From Eledone cirrhosa (Eukaryota), in assembly GCA_964016885.1 (NCBI GenBank), contig OZ024742.1, forward strand, positions 176,018,001 through 176,082,000: a stretch of DNA of 64,000 nt, read 5' to 3'. Positions 13,844 through 58,649 of the stretch are shown piece by piece; the first letter of the stretch is position 1; every line of letters starts with the position of its first letter. The position numbers and the translations under genes were made by a program. The notes beneath the pieces were generated by a model. The model saw only the letters and a list, made by a program, of their open reading frames with translations. It was not told the origin of the DNA and did not search any database.

Positions 13844-15188
13844 ATAAATCCATAGCTAGTGCATGTGATTAGCTCTTTATGAAAGCTCTATACTATGTAC
13901 CCACTTCTCCAAAATAAAATAATTTCAACTGACAGTTTGGCAAACTGAGGAACCTAGTTTTAAACACTTCTTGCTCTAACCACTTTAAGAACATTACTAA
14001 GATTGCATTTTCTTACTTACACGATCCATACACACACACATCCACTAAATTTCAACAGCATATGACCCTCTCTACCAGTTTATATGTTTTCAATATGCCA
14101 TTATGTGACAAAAATGGTGAGCATTTTTATTTAATGATTACATGAAATTATAAAATGAATTATACAAATTTGTATAAACTGTGTTCTATTAACGTTCACT
14201 CATGTGTAGTTGGCCTTAATCATAGAACTCTGAATTCCCACTCTATACTGTAAAGTGATTATGTGGGTATCATGACAAAAAGCATGCACCATAGACTGTA
14301 AATGTGATTGACGTTAGGGAGGGCATCCAGCCATAGAAACCAAGCGAAAATCAGTTCTGTATGAGCAAAATATGCTCATCTGACCTGGCTTGCCTCACAA
14401 TGAGACAACTCATCTAACCCATGCTCAAGTGGACAAATGGACGTTAAACAGTGATCATGATGATACACACGAACACACACACACACATATATATATATAT
14501 CGTGTAGTAATAGGTAGGTACAATATGGAAATTCAAAGACCAGGACATAGACTTCTTCATTAAATGGAATATACTAGAAAAATATCAACCATATATAAAT
14601 GGGCTGAAGGCCTACAGATTATGCAATGATGAGAAATGATGGATGTTGGATACTCTCCACAGCAATAACACCACTTAAGACAAGTACAGAGTTTTTTGCA
14701 CAATGTCCTCACATTTCTAAAGTACCTTTTAATGAACTGGCCTCCTTAATATTGATTTACATCTTTCTTAATCTATCGATTTTTTCTTAGTCCCATCATA
14801 ATTATTAGTTAATTTTGTTTGCATCGTTTGTTTGCATCTTTTCGGCCAAATTGTCTCCTTTAGACCATCCAGAATATTAGACCCTGATTAGGCCTTCCTC
14901 TCTTTGTTCTGTATTTTTTTTTTTTTTTTAGTATACATTATCCAGTATATTTTCATTGGCACAGGTTGAACAAGTTGGTACTCATGGCAAACACCACGTA
15001 CATACCTGGTATGGCATCGTTGTAGTATTTATAACATATATATATAAATATATATATATATATGGAAAGTTATATTTAAATTGTTGGGTTACAACTAGTA
15101 AATATTTATAACTGATATAAAAGCACTCAACAAGTATTTGGAGTATATTTACGATATTAAATAAATGGAAACTATATTTATAAAACCA

Positions 15189-15263
15189 TATTTATTTCAT
15201 TATATATATTTCAGGGATATCATATTAACAATATGTTATGCCTTCTTCAGACAAAATACAATA
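15189..15263 (-). ncRNA. Minimal type-I hammerhead ribozyme (3' pLTR copy)
   Basis: Minus strand: TATTGTATTTTGT-CTGAAGA-stem II(AGG..CATATT/AATATG..CCT)-GAAA-T-ATAT-ATA-ATGAAATAAATA; stem I pairs; palindromic loop III. Confidence 0.85.
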
Positions 15264-15582
15264 TAGACAGTTTTATAGATAAATAGATTTGACATACCGT
15301 TCAACATCGACTTGTATTTGAAAAAGTTGATTTGGCAGTGAAAAATTGTAAACAGAAAGAAAGAAAGAAAGAAAGAAGGAAAGAAAGAAAGAAAGAAAGA
15401 AGGAAAACGAAGAAAAAGAAGAAAAAGAAGAAATGCATGCAACAAAATAGAGAGATGGAAAGATAGATGAAGAGAAGAACTTCATGTAAAGAAACAGAGA
15501 GAGATATAGAGAGAGAGGAAATAGATAGAGATAGATATATATAGAGAAAAGTAGGTAGTTGGACGACGTATCAATGATACCT

Positions 15583-15625
<43 letters not shown>

Positions 15626-16654
15626 GCTCTAGTAATAATGTAAGGGAGATATATGTCGTTAGGAAAGAAACCAGCCGTTATATAGAGAGAAAAATGAAAA
15701 GTAACCAGACATAGGCGAGGCAGAATTCAAAAACCCTATGTTTTAATGTAGAAGTATTAGTTCGTATAAAAACCAGGCACTATAATGTAAATATCAGTAT
15801 TCCTGAATGAGACACGTATCTATAATGTGTGAAAAGTAATGATCTTATGTCTAGTTTTAAAAATTCATATGTTTATATGATAACTACAAACATCGATGTG
15901 AATTTACGTGATCAACTCTGCAAACCCCTATTTCACACGGAGAACATTCTCATTGTGCTATAAAAATTTAAGTATACATATATGTGTATATATACACACA
16001 TATATATAGAGTCTATATTAATTTTAACAATACTATTCTTGTCTTTACTCTACATGATTATCTATCAAGCAGAAATAGAGAACAGATTTCAATATATTAA
16101 TAAAAATATCAGAAACAAAAACAAAAAATACAAAAAATAATAATAATAATAATAATAAAAATAAACAAATAAATAAAATAGAAAACTAAAAAATATTATA
16201 TATTAAAAATGAAAATATTAAAAATATTAAAAAATATTATTAAAAAATATTAAAATAATAAAAATAAAAATAAAAACATAATATGCCACGCAAATCGACC
16301 ACAAAGATCAACCCTTCAAAATTAATTGACAATATATTGCCAAGTTCATTATAAGCATCAGAGTCGAAAACAGATAAAGCTAAAAATTATTTACCAAATT
16401 GCGTCTAGCAGAAATCATTTCAAAAGTTTAGGATGCCCAATTTGGTCTACATATGTTCTTATATTTAATATAGAAGTTTATCTAGTGTAACGTTTATTCG
16501 ATATATTTGGAGCATCAACTTTTAGAGTAGTTTAATTTTTCATGAAGAATGTTTAAAATAAAAATAAAAATTAAAATAAAAAGAAGAATAAAAAGAAGAA
16601 ATCGAAAGATTTATCGGCTAGTTTCCCAAATAATTACAAATCAAACTAAATATA

Positions 16655-18345
16655 CTACATTTTAAATTTAAATTTATATTTAAAAGTTGAGTTCAATCTA
16701 TGTTTGCAGCAACTGAATAAATTTGTCCGTAGAATAAGGGAATTTTTAGATTTTAGTATAAAGAATATCTCCTCCGCGCAGAGGTCACATGTCTCAGAGG
16801 ATGAATTAAAAGGAATCCCTCTTGAGGCTATATTCCAAGCCGTCGAATATCTAACGTTATCTTGCCTAAGTTGCCAGAGTACGCCTGATAGTGCTGTTGA
16901 AGATTTTTTGCGTGGATCTGTGAAAGAATTCTTGTGGTTATTATAGCGAAGTTTAAATTCCGTCGATGTGGAACCGACGTAGTTAAAAGAATTAGAGTCC
17001 GTTTTAACATTACAGTTGTATATTATATTTTTAACTAAGCAGTTGTTATTTAACGGACATTTAGATCTATCTCTACAGTTACATTTGTTAACTTGTATAT
17101 TATTTATGCTATTATCGCTAGGTTTTAAGTTCCTATTATTTATTCTATTAATATTTTGTGCTAAATTTTTGGTGGATGAGTAGGTTAATTTTATAGTATG
17201 TCTATTGAAAATTGAGTGATACCTATGTGTTCTAGGGAAGCGATTATCAAGAGCTTTAAAAAATAGTTTAGCGATGTGGGTTTTAATGTTTAGTGAGAAA
17301 GGGGGGGGCAAACCATATTATGTTCCTAGTTCTATTTCTTTTTTGGCTTTTGGAATTATTGTAATGCTTTCTATTATAGTTGTTAAGATTGTGGCCGTAA
17401 TTAAAATAGTTGTTATTTTGTTTAGTTTGTCTATCATTATCTATGTACATAATCTTATCACTATATCCTGCTCTAGCTAACGCTTCATTGTAGTACTGGG
17501 CTTTTTCGTCGAAAATCTTTCTATTAGACGAGATTCTAGAGATACGTTTTTGAACAGAGTTTACTATAGTGTTTTTGACAGATCTGAGGTGGTTAGAGTT
17601 AAAGCTGAGATAGTTTAAGTTTTCATTCAACTTGTGAAATGGATAGTGAAGACATGTGTTGAGATTTAATGTTATATCTAGGAAATTGACTATTCTATGG
17701 TTGTTCTCAATTTCTATTTTTAGATTAAAGTAATTAAAAAATTGTGTAATTTGTTTTCTTTTTCTATTTAGTTCAGAGTTATTATTATCAATAAGTAAAA
17801 TTGATCTTCGGTTTCCTGGGCACGAAAGGTTGTGTTCTGTTCTCAATTTCCAACTCGTGCATTATACAAGATGCTTCAACATTCATTTTCTCAAGCTCGG
17901 CCTTATCTGCTACCTTGTACTTTTTCCTCAGTTCCTTCAGTATGAGGCCATTATACATGTCTTTCTGCACTCCATAGAGGTTGTTGGTCTTGTCAGATTT
18001 CACCAAGATCTTCTCAGTTTTCTCTAAGCTCTCAATATTATCCTTAATGCCTTTCAGATATTCCTGGCCTTTGAAGTTTCTCTTGAATTTGACCCCTTGT
18101 ATGATAGAAATTATATCGTTTTCAAAGTCAGATAAAAGTTTGTTAGGGGGTGGATTTCTTTTAGATTTGAAAACTTTGTTTAAGTCCGAGACATTTTCAT
18201 TTATATTAGATTTATCGAAGTGGAATGCTCGCCACCTGATTCTCCTTATAAAAGAGTCAGATTTATCTATTAATTGTTTTATAAAGTCTTTGTTTCTAGG
18301 TAGAGGTATGTCTTTTAAAGAGGAAGTAATCTTAAAGAATTCCAT
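16655..18345 (-). pseudogene. PLE polyprotein in three frames: N-terminus, RT thumb, Cys-rich linker and GIY-YIG endonuclease; RT palm deleted
   Basis: SLKDIP...FIRRIRWRAF; VNFLDITLNL...YLSFNSNH; IIWFAPPF; CNCRDRSKCPLNNNCL; NIIY...YVGSTSTEFKLRYNNH; CDLCAEE; no (Y/F)xDD motif. Confidence 0.9.
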
Positions 18346-18519
18346 TTTTTCAGTTATAATATAAAGCGCTCAACAGTATTGGAGCAAGATACATGGAAAG
18401 TTATATTTAAATTGTTGGGTTACAACTAGTAAATATTTATAACTGATATAAAAGCACTCAACAAATATTTGGAGTATATTTACGATATTAAATAAATGGA
18501 AACTATATTTATAAAACAA

Positions 18520-18594
18520 TATTTATTTCATTATATATATTTCAGGGATATCATATTAACAATATGTTATGCCTTCTTCAGACAAAATACAATA
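18520..18594 (-). ncRNA. Minimal hammerhead ribozyme (5' direct pLTR copy)
   Basis: Same sequence as 15189-15263, 3331 nt away in the same orientation. Confidence 0.85.
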
Positions 18595-18805
18595 TAGACA
18601 GTTTTATAGATAAATATTCCTCATATAGGAATACTGATATTTACATTATAGTGCCTGGTTTTTATACGAACTAATACTTCTACATTAAAACATAGGGTTT
18701 TTGAATTCTGCCTCGCCTATGTCTGGTTACTTTTCATTTTTCTCTCTATATAACGGCTGGTTTCTTTCCTAACGACATATATCTCCCTTACATTATTACT
18801 AGAGC

Positions 18806-18836
<31 letters not shown>

Positions 18837-19140
18837 AGGTATCATTGATACGTCGTCCAACTACCTACTTTTCTCTATATATATCTATCTATTTCCTCTC
18901 TCTATATATCTCTCTCTGTTTCTTTACATGAAGTTCTTCTCTTTATCTATCTTTCCATCTCTCTATTTTGTTGCATGCATTTCTTCTTTTTCTTCTTTTT
19001 CTTCGTTTTCTTTCTTTCTTTCTTTCCTTCTTTCTTTGTTTCTTTCTTTCTGTTTACAATTTTTCACTGCCAAATCAACTTTTCAAATACAAGTCGATGT
19101 TGAACGTTATGTCAAATCTATTTATCTATAAAACTGTTTA

Positions 19141-19215
19141 TATTGTATTTTGTCTGAAGAAGGCATAACATATTGTTAATATGATATCCCTGAAATATAT
19201 ATAATGAAATAAATA
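19141..19215 (+). ncRNA. Minimal hammerhead ribozyme (inverted pLTR copy)
   Basis: CTGAAGA 19154-19160, GAAA 19192-19195, AUA triplet 19201-19203. Confidence 0.85.
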
Positions 19216-19252
19216 TGGTTTTATAAATATAGTTTCCATTTATTTAATATCG

Positions 19253-19297
<45 letters not shown>

Positions 19298-45571: not shown

Positions 45572-46245
45572 TGAAGAGAGAGAGAAACAACTGAAGAGGG
45601 AAATTATTGTCTTATGTTTGTGTTTCCATTACATTTCTAAACACTCTTTATTAGTAACCACCCACCACCTTGTTCCTTTTAATTCTTATTAATTTATTGC
45701 TTTGACCTTTCTTCTATTCTCTTTATCTCGCTTGTTGATTAACTCTTTTCCATCCTTCTTTCTCCCTCTTTCTTTCTCTCCCTTTCTCTCTCTCAATCCC
45801 ACTCACTCATCCTCTTTCTCTCCCACCATCTATCCCTTTTCTCCCACTCTCTCTCTGCCCTCTTACTACTTCTGTTTTCCTTAGTCTCTCCCTCTTTGTA
45901 CCTGTTCTCACTAAGATCAGACGTGTTTCTCTTCGCTCTCTCTCTTGCTGTTAATAAGGTCTCAGGGCTTATACCTGGTTGCCTTTTTAACTTCTTCCTC
46001 TCTCTCCTCCTGATTACTGCTACATACATGTTGTTGTCTTGTGTTCACCCCTCTCTATCAGTATGTTTTCTGTTTTTTTCTTTCTGTTTATTTCTTTCTC
46101 TTTGCTATCGTCTTCTTTTGTCTTTTCTTTCCGTAATAACTTCCTGGAGTTATTGATGTACTGTGGATAGATGTATTGTCTTTCTAAACACTCTTTATTA
46201 GTAACCACACAGCACCTTGTTCCTTATAATTGTTGCATTAAATAT

Positions 46246-46352
46246 AAAAATATGGAACACTTCATGAATTTGTGTGTCATCCTTTTGCAGGGACCATAAT
46301 AATCTTCTCTGTATTGTTCCAATTTTAGAATATGTACTGCCGTAGCTAGTAT
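46246..46352 (-). pseudogene. U6: Full-length U6 snRNA pseudogene
   Basis: Minus strand ATACTAGCTACGGCAGTACATATTCTAAAATTGGAACAATACAGAGAAGATTATTATGGTCCCTGCAAAAGGATGACACACAAATTCATGAAGTGTTCCATATTTTT (107 nt); ACAGAGA box intact, AGC triad mutated. Confidence 0.93.
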
Positions 46353-46440
46353 ATAATCTAAAGTTGGAATGGTACAGAGAAGATTAGCATAGCCACAGTG
46401 CATGGATGACATGAAAACTCGTGAAGCGTTCCATATTTTT
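46348..46440 (+). pseudogene. U6: U6 snRNA pseudogene, inverted copy
   Basis: CTAAAGTTGGAATGGTACAGAGAAGATTAGCATAGCCACAGTGCATGGATGACATGAAAACTCGTGAAGCGTTCCATATTTTT. Confidence 0.93.
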
Positions 46441-46673
46441 ATACTGAATGCAACAATTATAAAATGATTTATTCTCTCAGATTAAAGAAAAGAATAAGCT
46501 TTAAATATACTGTGCATTTTCACCTTCACATTTTAACTATATACATGTATATATATATATATACACACACACACACGCATATACACTATTTGATATAAAT
46601 TTAGTCAAAATTTATATTGTCATTAATGATATATTTGGAAAAAAGACATAGAAATTAACTTGCTGTATTTAGT

Positions 46674-53910: not shown

Positions 53911-54063
53911 GTATGTATATATATTAAAGAGTTAAACAAGATTCAATGAGTACATCAAAGAATAAGTTTTACAGTAGATTGGAAGCACTCTACAGTAAAA
54001 ATATTTTCCAGAGGTATTAATATTAAAATACAAATATTAATAAAATAGATGTTCTTTTGATCA

Positions 54064-54126
54064 ATTAAATGTTATTATACATATTTCAGAGGTACAACAG
54101 TACGTCCTCATCAGACAACATATAAT
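54064..54126 (-). ncRNA. Minimal type-I hammerhead ribozyme
   Basis: ATTATATGTTGT-CTGATGA-GGACGTAC-TGTT-GTACCTCT-GAAA-T-ATGT-ATA-ATAACATTTAAT. Confidence 0.88.
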
Positions 54127-54827
54127 GGTACATGACATACCCTCAGATATTAAATGATTAAGATTTAATCAAGGTAGTGATTAACCTATGAGAAAACTCA
54201 ATATTTATACCCTAATAATGAGAAAATGCGAAAACGTAATAGATTCAATAGAGAAGGTATGAGAAAGGAAAACGTTGCTTTAATGCAACAGTTATAGAGA
54301 TTTTAAAATGTGGGATACTACAAATTAGGATTATTGAGGAAGGCATCTCTGGAAATATAATTTTATTACAATTTATGAAGGCAACCGAGAGATAATTAAA
54401 GAGAGGGAGAGATAAAGGGGAGTAATTTATGCAAACATTCATTTTTCTCTCCATATGCACTTAGCGGTTAAGTTTCAAAATATTTAATTTATGTTATTTT
54501 AGGGTGAAGAATCAATATTTTAAGTTTTTAAAAGTTGCTGGTTATTTATATTAATTTCATAAATTTTATAAATTTTTTAAAAGTGTTACATTACTACAAT
54601 TCTGAATTTTATGAAAACAAAATTAAAGGATTTACTAGGCCCGCGAAAGAAAAATATACAATGTTGAATTATACCTTAAATGTAATCTTTAACAACAATT
54701 ACATATAAGACTGTCAAGATTTTCGGTATGTAAAATTTCTGAAGTACTTACTGTTACAAATATCAAAGAATTTATTGTCAAGTAGATACATTGTCTAAAG
54801 TATAATGATTAACACAGAGTTTTCAGC

Positions 54828-54884
<57 letters not shown>

Positions 54885-55732
54885 TAGTGTGTGTGTGTGC
54901 ATTTATCGTAATAAATTAATATTTATTATATTATATTAAATCACTACATTAGTTCTACCTTTATGGGAAGAATGAACTCTAAATAATGATTATGTTATTG
55001 TACAATATATTTATATTTGCACAACCTATATATAGCGTTATACCGAAACAATAATTATGATTAAGTTATTATACATTATAAATATAGATCCCCAAAAAAC
55101 CAAATTTAGATGATATACATAAGTAATAATATGATTATGTTATTATACAATATACACATATTTGCAAAAAATTAGGTATAGAGAGATATACTAAGTATTA
55201 ATGAGACAGTATACTTATGGTAAATGATAACGATTATACTCTTAGAACATAGATTCAAACATGCATAAGTTAAATACATACATATAAAAGAATGTAAACG
55301 CATGAATGATTCACAGTTCAAAATAAGGTCCGTAAAAATTTACAGGTTGGATATTTGAACTATATTTAAAACATATATAGAAAAATAAAGATAGAGAAAT
55401 AATTGTAGGGTCAAAGTTAGTAATATTATGTTATCTATATCAACGTGTCAGCATGTTATTAAACAAGTGTCATTCATTCAAACGTTATTTCCTTTATAGA
55501 TAGTTATAACATAAAGCAATATTAAAGGCCATTAAGGTTTTCATCTGTTGATTATGTACGTCTAAAAACCATGTTTGGTTGGTTAGTGTTTTTTCCTGGT
55601 CTTATGGGAAGCTTGGAATGTAGACAAGGCTTTATGGATGCAGTTAGAAAATAATTCAGTTTTTTTGTTAATTAAGGTCTCATAATTATTAATAAACAAA
55701 AGGGTCTCCATTGTACAAAGCGCGCAGTTACT

Positions 55733-56251
55733 TCATATACTTGAGTTGTTGTAAACTCCACTATTCCGAAGTTTCGTCCAAAAAATGGAGTATTTTAAGT
55801 TCTTCTCTTTTAATGACCATATAAGCTGTGATAAAGAAGTGGATGATTTCCTCTTGGAGTTCGAAAATGAGCATTTATGATTTGCAAATCTGGCTTTAAA
55901 TGTAGAAGTCGATCCTATGTAGTTGCATGTGTTGTAATCAGTTTTAACCGTGCATTTATACATCAAATTACTATCCAAACAATTATTTTGCAGAGGGCAA
56001 TCAATTCTATTTCTACAATTACATTTTGGTTTATTATCATTTATGTTAACACAATTATTAAGATCATTATGCTGATTCTGCTTTAGAATTTTACTGTTTA
56101 ATTTAGCAATGTTTTGGGCAATATTCATAGTTGTAGAATAAAACAATTTAATAGTGCATTTATTAAAAATGGAATGGTATTTATGTTGAGTAGGGAAAGA
56201 GGTGTCCAAAGCATTATAGAATAATTTTGCAATTTGTGAATATGGCCCCAA
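55733..56251 (-). pseudogene. PLE linker and GIY-YIG endonuclease fragment (mirror copy ~56253-56960 on +)
   Basis: IAKLFYNALDTSFP..HKYHSIFN, CNCRNRIDCPLQNNCL, LMYKC...YIGSTSTFKARFANH; homologous to 16655-17311. Confidence 0.9.
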
Positions 56252-56314
56252 TACATTGCTAAATTAAATAATAAAATTCTAAATCAGAATGAGAATAATG
56301 ATCTTAATAATAAT

Positions 56315-56498
56315 TGTTTCTACTTTAGGCACAAGGCCAGCAATAACCCAATGCATTACTGGTACTTTATTTTATCGACCCCGTAAGGATGAAAGGCAAA
56401 GTCAACCTCGGCGGGATTTGAACTCAGATCGTAAAGGGACGTAACTATGCTGGAAAGCATGGCCTCTGACCCTCTACCGATACTGCCAATCCACCGCC
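56315..56498 (-). mobile_element. tRNA-derived SINE with 18-bp TSD, in the right PLE arm only
   Basis: AATGATCTTAATAATAAT at 56297-56314 and 56499-56516. Confidence 0.95.
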
Positions 56499-57643
56499 AA
56501 TGATCTTAATAATAATGTTAACATAAATGATAATAAACGAAAATGTAATTGTAGAAATAAAATTGATTACCCTTTGTAAAATAATTGTTTGGATAGTAAT
56601 GTGGTGTATAAATGCACGGTTAAAACTGATTACAACACATGGAACTACATAGGATCGACTTCTTCTACATTTAAAGCCAGATTTGCGAATCATAAATGCT
56701 CATTTTCGAACTCCAAGAGGAAATCATCCACTTCTTTATCACATTAAAAGAGAACAATTTAAAATACTCCATTTTTTGGACGAAACTTCGGAATAGTGGA
56801 GTTTACCGCAACTCAAGTATATGAAGTAACTGCGCGCTTTGTACAATGGAGACCCTTTTGATTATTAATAATTATGAGACCTTAATTAACAAAAAAACTG
56901 AATTATTTTCTAACTACATCCATAAAGCCTTGTCTACATTCCAAGCTTCCCATAAGACCAGGAAAAAAACACTAACCAACCAAACATGGTTTTTAGACGT
57001 ACATAATCAACAGATGAAAACGTTAATGGCCTTTAATATAGCTTTATCTTATAACTATCTATAAAGGAAATAACGTTTGAATGAATGCTGACACGTTGAT
57101 ATAGATAACATAATATTACTAACTTTGATCCATACCATTATTTCTCTATCTTTATTTTTCTATATATGTTTTTATTATAGTTCAAATATCCAACCTGTAA
57201 ATTTTTACGGACCTTATTTTGAACTGTGAAACATTCATGCGTTTACACTATTTTATATATATGTATGTATTTAACTTATGTATGTTTGAATCTATTATGT
57301 AAGAGTATAATCGTTATCATTTACCATAAGAATACTGTCTCATTAATACTTAGTATATCTCTCTATACCTAATTTTTGCAAATATGTGTATATTGTATAA
57401 TAATATAATCATATTACTTGTTGCGTATAACTGTGCATTTGTTTTTTTTTTGCATCTATATTTATAATGTATAATAACTTAATCATAATTATTGTTTCGG
57501 TATAACGCTATATATAGTTTGTGCAAATATAAATATATTGTACAATAGCATAATCATTATTTAGAGTTCATTCTTCCCATAAAGGTAGAACTAATATAGT
57601 GATTTAATATAATATAATAAATATTAATTTATTACGATAAATG

Positions 57644-57797
<154 letters not shown>

Positions 57798-58501
57798 GCT
57801 GAAAACTCTGTGTTAATCATTATACTTTAGACAATGTATCTACTTGACAATAAATTCTTCGATATTTGTAACAGTAAGTACTTCAGTAATTTTACATACC
57901 GAAAATGTTGACACTCTTATATGTAATTGATGTTAAAGATTACATTTAAGGTAAAATTCAACATTGTATATTTTTCTTTCGCGGGCTTAGTAAATCCTTT
58001 AATTTTATTTTTTTTTCATAAAATTAAGAATTTTAGTAATGTGACACATTTAAAAAATTTATAAAATTTATAAAATTAATATAAATAACCATCAACTTTT
58101 AAAAACTTAAAATTTTGATTCTTCACACTAAAATAACATAAATTAAATATTTTGAAACGTAACCGCTAAGTCCATATGGAGAAAACAAAATGTTTGCATA
58201 AATTACTCCCCTTTATCTCTCCCTCTCTTTAATTATCTCTCGGTTGCCTTCATAAATTGTAATAAAATTATATTTCCAGAGACGTCTTCCTCAATAATCA
58301 AAATTTGTAGTATCCCACATTTTAAAATCTCTATAACTGTTACATTAAAGCAACGTTTTCCTTACTCATACCTTCTCTATTGAATCTATTACGTTTTCGC
58401 ATTTTCTCATTATTAGGGTATAAATATTGAGTTTTCTCATAGGTTAATCACTACCGTGATTAAATCTTAACCATTTAACATCTCAGGGTATGTCATGCAT
58501 C

Positions 58502-58564
58502 ATTATATTTTGTCTGATGAGGACGTACTGTTGTTCCTCTGTAATAAGTATAATAAAATTTAAT
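58502..58564 (+). ncRNA. Hammerhead copy with mutated core (GAAA>GTAA)
   Basis: ATTATATTTTGT-CTGATGA-GGACGTACTGTTGTTCCTCT-GTAA-TAAGTATA-ATAAAATTTAAT. Confidence 0.8.
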
Positions 58565-58649
58565 TGATCAAAAGACATCTATTTTATTCATATTTTTATT
58601 TTAATATATGTATGTATATATATATGTGTGTATATATATATGTATATGT

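Follow-up and report, generated by a model that had tools for sequence, protein, structure and literature searches.

How can a small nuclear RNA of the host come to stand in the genome as its own mirror image? In the window, the 64,000-nucleotide stretch of Eledone cirrhosa DNA analyzed here (GCA_964016885.1, contig OZ024742.1, positions 176,018,001 to 176,082,000), two copies of U6 are arranged head to head around one 5' end, and both continue past their terminal T-tract into the same sequence. The explanation preferred, with a probability of about 0.72, is that the RNA of a Penelope-like element (PLE), cut by its ribozyme, gained U6, that Penelope enzymes copied this hybrid from both strands, and that the cDNAs paired on the 5' stem of U6.

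The U6 model RF00026 matched the minus strand at positions 46246 to 46352 with 94.9 bits and the plus strand at 46334 to 46440 with 78.8 bits (cmscan). The inverted arms (46224 to 46338 and 46348 to 46462) are 115 nt long and 79% complementary, and the fold had a z value of −20, with none of 200 shuffled sequences being equally stable. This agrees with the original prediction of a double U6 palindrome with a full-length minus arm, hinged on the 5' stem of U6 itself. The match is full length in the minus arm only, and the plus arm has no positions 1 to 19 of its own. These 19 positions, the 5' stem-loop, exist as a single copy at 46334 to 46352 with one mismatch to the reverse complement of the U6 gene and eight to the sense reading. 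The hinge is thus one minus-oriented copy of U6 1 to 19, and the plus-strand U6, placed at 46348 to 46440 before, is indeed present but really comprises U6 20 to 107 from 46353 to 46440. The left arm contains the complete U6 1 to 107 (46246 to 46352, minus strand). Both arms end with five T residues, and the 22 nt that follow are identical at 20 of 22 sites, as predicted; only 11 of the next 30 sites agree, so that the match ends there. The left flank occupies 46224 to 46245 on the minus strand, and the insert continues on the right to 46540, so that the palindromic arms but not the whole insert were located within the span 46224 to 46462 proposed earlier.

On the left side, the insert adjoins a repeat (45587 to 46234, plus strand), which was named family Y, is different from the family of the flanks, and is likely the target site. 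It is composed of about one unit and a second 3' end that has lost internal sequence near 46180, and its final 11 nt overlap the insert at the left junction as an imperfect microhomology. Family Y has hammerhead-like words, a one-sided tail, and TA targets; in the copy in the window and in the loci L063 to L091, the order of the hammerhead words is unusual, with the cut site and GAAA ahead of the CUGA core. On the right side follows a TA/CA microsatellite (46541 to 46590), the usual target beside the ends of both families. The borders show no direct repeat, hence no target-site duplication, and no poly(A), and neither arm carries a PLE tail. Further downstream, between 46674 and 46950, the minus strand carries the 3' part (about 129 nt) of an abundant SINE-like repeat twice in tandem.

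The true U6 genes form a tandem array of at least 33 copies in units of about 1.8 kb (G000:C19:31.777-31.841 Mb), one copy being inverted, one truncated at the edge, and some units carrying a SINE-like insert upstream. Two singleton genes on C5 and C9 represent a second variant with a different 5' end. The minus arm differs from the array gene by 10 changes in 107 nt and has the array variant at three of three diagnostic sites; the plus arm differs by 12 changes in 88 nt, none of them common to both arms, which is weak evidence by itself (chance 0.25). CpG sites were enriched among the changes in the U6 arms (P = 0.0008), again with none in common. The palindrome is an old genomic structure, and its arms decayed independently.

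The partner of U6 is a high-copy repeat, designated family X. A search with positions 46441 to 46540 gave 500 candidates, of which 40 were scored, and most of the matches listed start where U6 ends or no more than a few bases away. Compared to the majority sequence of 18 copies, the 22 nt of the left arm agree at 22 and those of the right arm at 20 of 22 sites. The right arm is 93% identical over 98 nt, with 7 of 98 non-CpG differences, and ends at the tail-less terminus of the family about 100 bp from its first base (+1), where the TA run begins. One family X copy has a broken frame about 460 to 700 nt upstream, 65% identical to the C-terminus of a 777-amino-acid frame that was found in many copies, and the nearest Atlas clusters of the latter (0.97 to 0.98) carry GIY-YIG or RVT_1. 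We therefore interpret family X as the 3' end of a PLE that encodes an endonuclease; reverse transcriptase and GIY-YIG are assigned to it by proxy, from the Atlas neighbors of the 777-amino-acid frame. The X end is also located downstream at three other of 20 loci with such a frame. Pfam contained no match for the 777-amino-acid frame or the family X frame fragment, NCBIfam returned one weak reverse transcriptase row and did not identify the family X frame, and neither did a pairwise comparison with a PLE frame of the window nor tblastn of the window PLE frames against family X loci. A young PLE family at L212:1036-3366 possesses many open frames of 777 amino acids, again with no Pfam match; about 1 kb further downstream it carries a hammerhead-like motif with U3-A8. 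The window itself harbors kilobase PLE fold-backs at 15144 to 19260 and 54053 to 58575 with arms 90 to 99% complementary and GIY-YIG-like frames. The kinship to local PLE fold-backs, suspected from the letters alone, is borne out by these structures and by the PLE end as partner. So is the notion that this is not a typical LINE-made copy: the partner is a PLE, and poly(A) and target duplication are missing.

Directly upstream of +1, family X copies contain a minimal type I hammerhead in which the core is U3-A8, stems I and II are 5 bp each, and stem III is palindromic; core residues and stems I to III occur in order. In an alignment of 16 copies, 89.8% of the cells were paired versus 25 to 45% in slid controls; there was no covariation and no double-sided change among these decaying copies, and no hammerhead family was present among 150 of the 222 Rfam rows. 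The cut triplet is of the GUU type, which is the weaker type, and TT immediately precedes the cut. The core variant is known in PLEs, according to the available parts of PMC4209133. In the palindrome, U6 is joined exactly at the cut predicted for this hammerhead, a feature absent from the earlier description of the locus. Of the 18 family X copies, 6 have no hammerhead just upstream, and 2 or 3 of these resemble true starts at the cut, albeit in a set chosen by the query.

The same join was found elsewhere. A search with a junction pattern gave 17 matches, which were sorted into seven arms at five loci with U6, four or five T residues, and base +1, seven array genes, and three matches judged to be chance, one of these from the match text alone. 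The pattern had been built for this join, so the count of five loci is biased. One of the five is a second U6-family X palindrome (L112:1336-1640; G000:C2:400423236-400423540), with the same join, a hinge on an internal palindrome of U6, and a tail on one arm. When joins away from this site were sought in family X, nothing matched, and the on-site control was likewise unmatched. Because of the bias of the junction pattern, an unselected set was used as well, namely every dispersed copy (17 in total) among the top U6 matches in the 3.0-Gb assembly. Four of the 17 had partners with a hammerhead. U6 was joined at the predicted cut in L044 (GUA cut, CUGAUGA core), L096 (GUC cut), and L104 (GUA cut, with an A-run that leaves a doubt of 1 nt), which represent three further families; these joins follow A or C, with no T microhomology. 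In L102, one extra base places the join one base off the predicted cut. The 5' half of the ribozyme was not found directly across U6 in L044, L096, L104, L102, L134, or L135, which argues against an insertion of U6 into a resident element. The other 13 copies were seven near the 5' ends of SINE-like repeats, four inside LINE- or SINE-like repeats, one in TA, and one with no class; the LINE- and SINE-like labels are based on appearance. Seven of 17 copies near SINE-like 5' ends indicate that U6 attaches to non-ribozyme ends, too. These seven belong to two short SINE-like families (L026, L093, L097, and L103 in one; L095, L100, and L105 in the other). Two U6-PLE hybrids (L044:1480-1640 and L104:1430-1735) have an inverted, U6-less piece of PLE on the 5' side of U6, which is taken to be a second cDNA from another template.

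From these data, a course of events can be proposed. The family X hammerhead would have cleaved in the germ line, leaving a PLE fragment with a 5'-OH, the end left by hammerhead cleavage; this step is considered highly probable. U6 with its cyclic phosphate end may then have been ligated to the cut end by RtcB, a route given slightly better than even odds, or the reverse transcriptase may have jumped onto it end to end, for which the odds are slightly worse than even. Both routes require the cut. Since a jump from a cut RNA end yields the same DNA as ligation, the DNA does not separate these two; the joins to SINE-like ends indicate that such jumps, or some further route, occur as well. RtcB joins the cyclic phosphate of U6 to 5'-OH ends and thereby produces U6/L1 hybrids with four to six T residues and no preferred L1 site (Moldovan 2019, PMC6789731, available text). 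In the simplest reading, the cDNAs would have been primed on both strands of the target, the border between the family Y end and the TA run, the left one at +22 and the right one at the tail-less terminus. Their ends would have been joined via the 5-bp stem of U6, either as two hybrid cDNAs or after a snap-back that met an ordinary PLE cDNA. Priming on both strands with joining through this stem, both variants taken together, is rated as probable. The inserted copy would subsequently have decayed neutrally.

The two arms are unequal. Only the left arm contains U6 1 to 19, and only the right arm contains family X from +23 to about +100; each arm holds sequence missing from the other, so that simple self-priming alone is insufficient. 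Of the fold-back self-priming predicted originally, the hinge on the 5' stem is retained, but not the single self-copying cDNA, because the 79 nt of additional PLE in the right arm, absent from the loop-bearing left arm, require two primed cDNAs or a later deletion. Among 10 family Y loci mapped, five were tight fold-backs, and in all five the tail-less arm extended further 5' than the tail arm (BLAST ends, which are approximate). These arms also each have sequence missing from the other, indicating that they were templated separately. Three family X fold-backs that were read (L117, L130, and L160) have the loop on the tail arm, which is compatible with either route, including a snap-back. Searches with hinge patterns for more palindromes yielded one and then two matches, old or differently hinged copies such as L112 being missed, and a head-to-head pattern found the present locus and one unrelated site compared to three plus three matches in the controls. 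In vitro, a PLE protein from anole (PAc) nicks and extends both target strands, and two start sites define the tail; ribozyme mutants were inserted normally, and among the RNA reads none had its start or end at the cut (PMC11167929, as far as its text was available).

Alternatively, a single U6-PLE cDNA could have snapped back on the 5' stem of U6, the longer left arm being shortened later by a deletion or the insertion of family Y. This is rather unlikely. The end of the cDNA forms a hairpin at the hinge (−3.6 kcal/mol with DNA parameters), and the snap-back following a full-length cDNA is known with R2 proteins, as described in the available part of PMC11371274. At L110:1485-1526 (G000:C1:141701571-141701612), where a symmetrical 42-nt fold-back of U6 1 to 29 around the 5' stem lacks a PLE partner and has a 13-bp target duplication, self-priming suffices. 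The imperfect 11-nt overlap at the left junction fits as well. Family Y diverged by 2 to 6%, compared to 5 to 12% for the insert (7% for the X arm, 5% and 12% non-CpG for the U6 arms), which allows a later arrival of family Y, but these ages do not decide the route. Against the snap-back stands the need for a second event, and no remnant of a lost arm was found in 6 kb leftward, where the best local score of 32 was a 22-nt AT-rich match. The second arm is not contained in the loop-bearing one, and the right arm ends at a terminus common to the family. The hybrid in L133 also stops at about +21 beside TA, making this point plausible as a start site. Moreover, the fold-backs of family Y cannot be self-copies.

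The explanation by a cut, hybrid, and two-strand copying has to be compared, too, with one that needs no cleavage, in which the folded hammerhead halts the reverse transcriptase, or a match of TT is used, and the enzyme switches to U6. The TT preceding the join in family X would fit a switch at a 2-nt microhomology, template switching was the first explanation of the U6/L1 chimeras (PMC4476161, available parts), and ribozyme activity was dispensable in vitro in the accessible data of PMC11167929. In the three other families, however, the join at the predicted scissile bond follows A or C and involves no match to T, the 101-nt fragment offers 12 TT ends plus four longer T runs, and a 6-nt match to the U6 end just past the cut was unused in the seven arms found. 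A switch with no cut is regarded as rather improbable.

A function of the locus as double-stranded RNA kept by selection, be it a substrate for editing or small RNAs or a regulator of U6, is very improbable. If transcribed, the plus strand would form a fold of −123 kcal/mol that includes a helix of 30 bp, but the minus strand folds alike (−121 kcal/mol), changes that keep G-U pairing were not enriched (10 versus 5, P = 0.30), no compensatory shared changes occurred, and the divergence is the same as that of dead family copies. The true U6 genes of the array and the singletons have a TATA-like word about 30 nt upstream, but neither arm of the palindrome has an upstream promoter region. Such a promoter is not possible because the DNA upstream of each arm is the opposite arm; the original prediction that there is no room for PSE or TATA elements was correct in this respect. 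The conserved residues of U6 are not intact, with 10 and 12 substitutions, and the minus arm is altered at positions 54 and 55, part of the AGC triad. The locus is probably an inert pseudogene.

Two origins can practically be discounted. One is that a true U6 gene was duplicated at the DNA level in inverted orientation, together with its 3' flank, or that two insertions occurred independently. This would agree with the earlier suggestion that the 22 nt are the flank of a true gene, and this sequence does match the array flank at 15 to 16 of 22 sites (shuffle P = 0.017), while the right flank weakly aligns to two of four array spacer variants (0 to 1% of real-sequence controls); but the agreement of these bases with family X is 22 of 22 sites, and 93% over 98 nt, and the arms have an identical join and are locked together by a single shared 5' stem. 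The candidate origin from a gene flank had marginal scores in AT-rich DNA and was overturned by the high-copy match to family X; the likeness is an AT-rich chance match. Also dropped, on the 22/22 match to family X, was an inverted duplication of the target, the family Y end resembling 11 of the 22 nt. An artefact of assembly or library such as a chimeric palindromic read has hardly any standing because artefactual palindromes have identical arms, whereas these differ at 21% of sites with their own CpG-biased changes, and related inserts exist at other loci. Three of six sequencing runs listed, all of one sample, contained 0.20 to 0.48 of the queried words, and no RNA data set was listed among the runs with such words.

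The structure resembles several known systems, each in part, in the available texts of the papers cited. Like U6/LINE-1 chimeras (PMC6789731; Doucet 2015, PMC4476161), it has U6 with four to six T residues joined directly to the same-sense, 5'-truncated end of a retroelement, and the RtcB model for these chimeras also needs a 5'-OH on the partner; unlike them, the partner is a PLE, the attachment point is a single, fixed bond where the ribozyme is predicted to cut, poly(A) and target duplication are missing, and the copies form a head-to-head pair. The head-to-head arms, the palindrome at the junction, and the AT-rich target are shared with inverted pLTR insertions of endonuclease-bearing PLEs (Arkhipova 2013, PMC3846280; Craig 2021, PMC8557442), and the defined 3' termini with or without a tail and the extension of both strands are shared with these and with PAc (Frangieh 2024, PMC11167929), but here the hinge and most of each arm are host small nuclear RNA, and the optional tail is on neither arm. 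In contrast to the in vitro work with PAc (PMC11167929), in which a cleaved template was not needed, the 5' boundary is fixed at the cut, which suggests a cleaved template. In engineered R2 insertions (Zhang 2024, PMC11371274; Palm 2024, PMC11331408), the 3' end of the cDNA primes an inverted copy, and the additional RNA at the 5' end is usually U6; the present case differs as a natural germ-line PLE event with both features together and a second arm that is not within the first. The hammerhead is similar to minimal PLE hammerheads (PMC4209133), type I with a short palindromic stem III and the U3-A8 core variant; these have low activity in vitro, whereas here a genomic join marks the predicted bond.

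A literature search, with supplements and subscription papers outside its scope, found no paper that describes U6 as joined to PLEs at their hammerhead cuts, and the available texts of PMC11838501, 10.1101/2024.12.14.628481, and 10.64898/2026.07.22.740005 contain no U6-PLE join. The U6 joins at the predicted bond in four families provide a test, precise to the base and readable from a genome, of whether minimal PLE hammerheads such as those in PMC4209133 and PMC11167929 cut in vivo, and for what, and they name the RNA junction to seek. The uneven arms bear on how inverted insertions of PLEs are formed. The same join across several element families is likely a fossil record of weak ribozymes cutting in living germ cells. 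More generally, and tentatively, at somewhat less than an even chance, U6 may be a natural tag of 5'-OH RNA ends: RtcB would join it to hammerhead-cut PLE transcripts, and PLE enzymes would insert the hybrids via two-strand priming, with cDNA ends paired on any small hairpin. If so, U6 retrocopies would locate ribozyme cuts in animal genomes with single-base precision, and the cut RNA would be a real template of PLEs.
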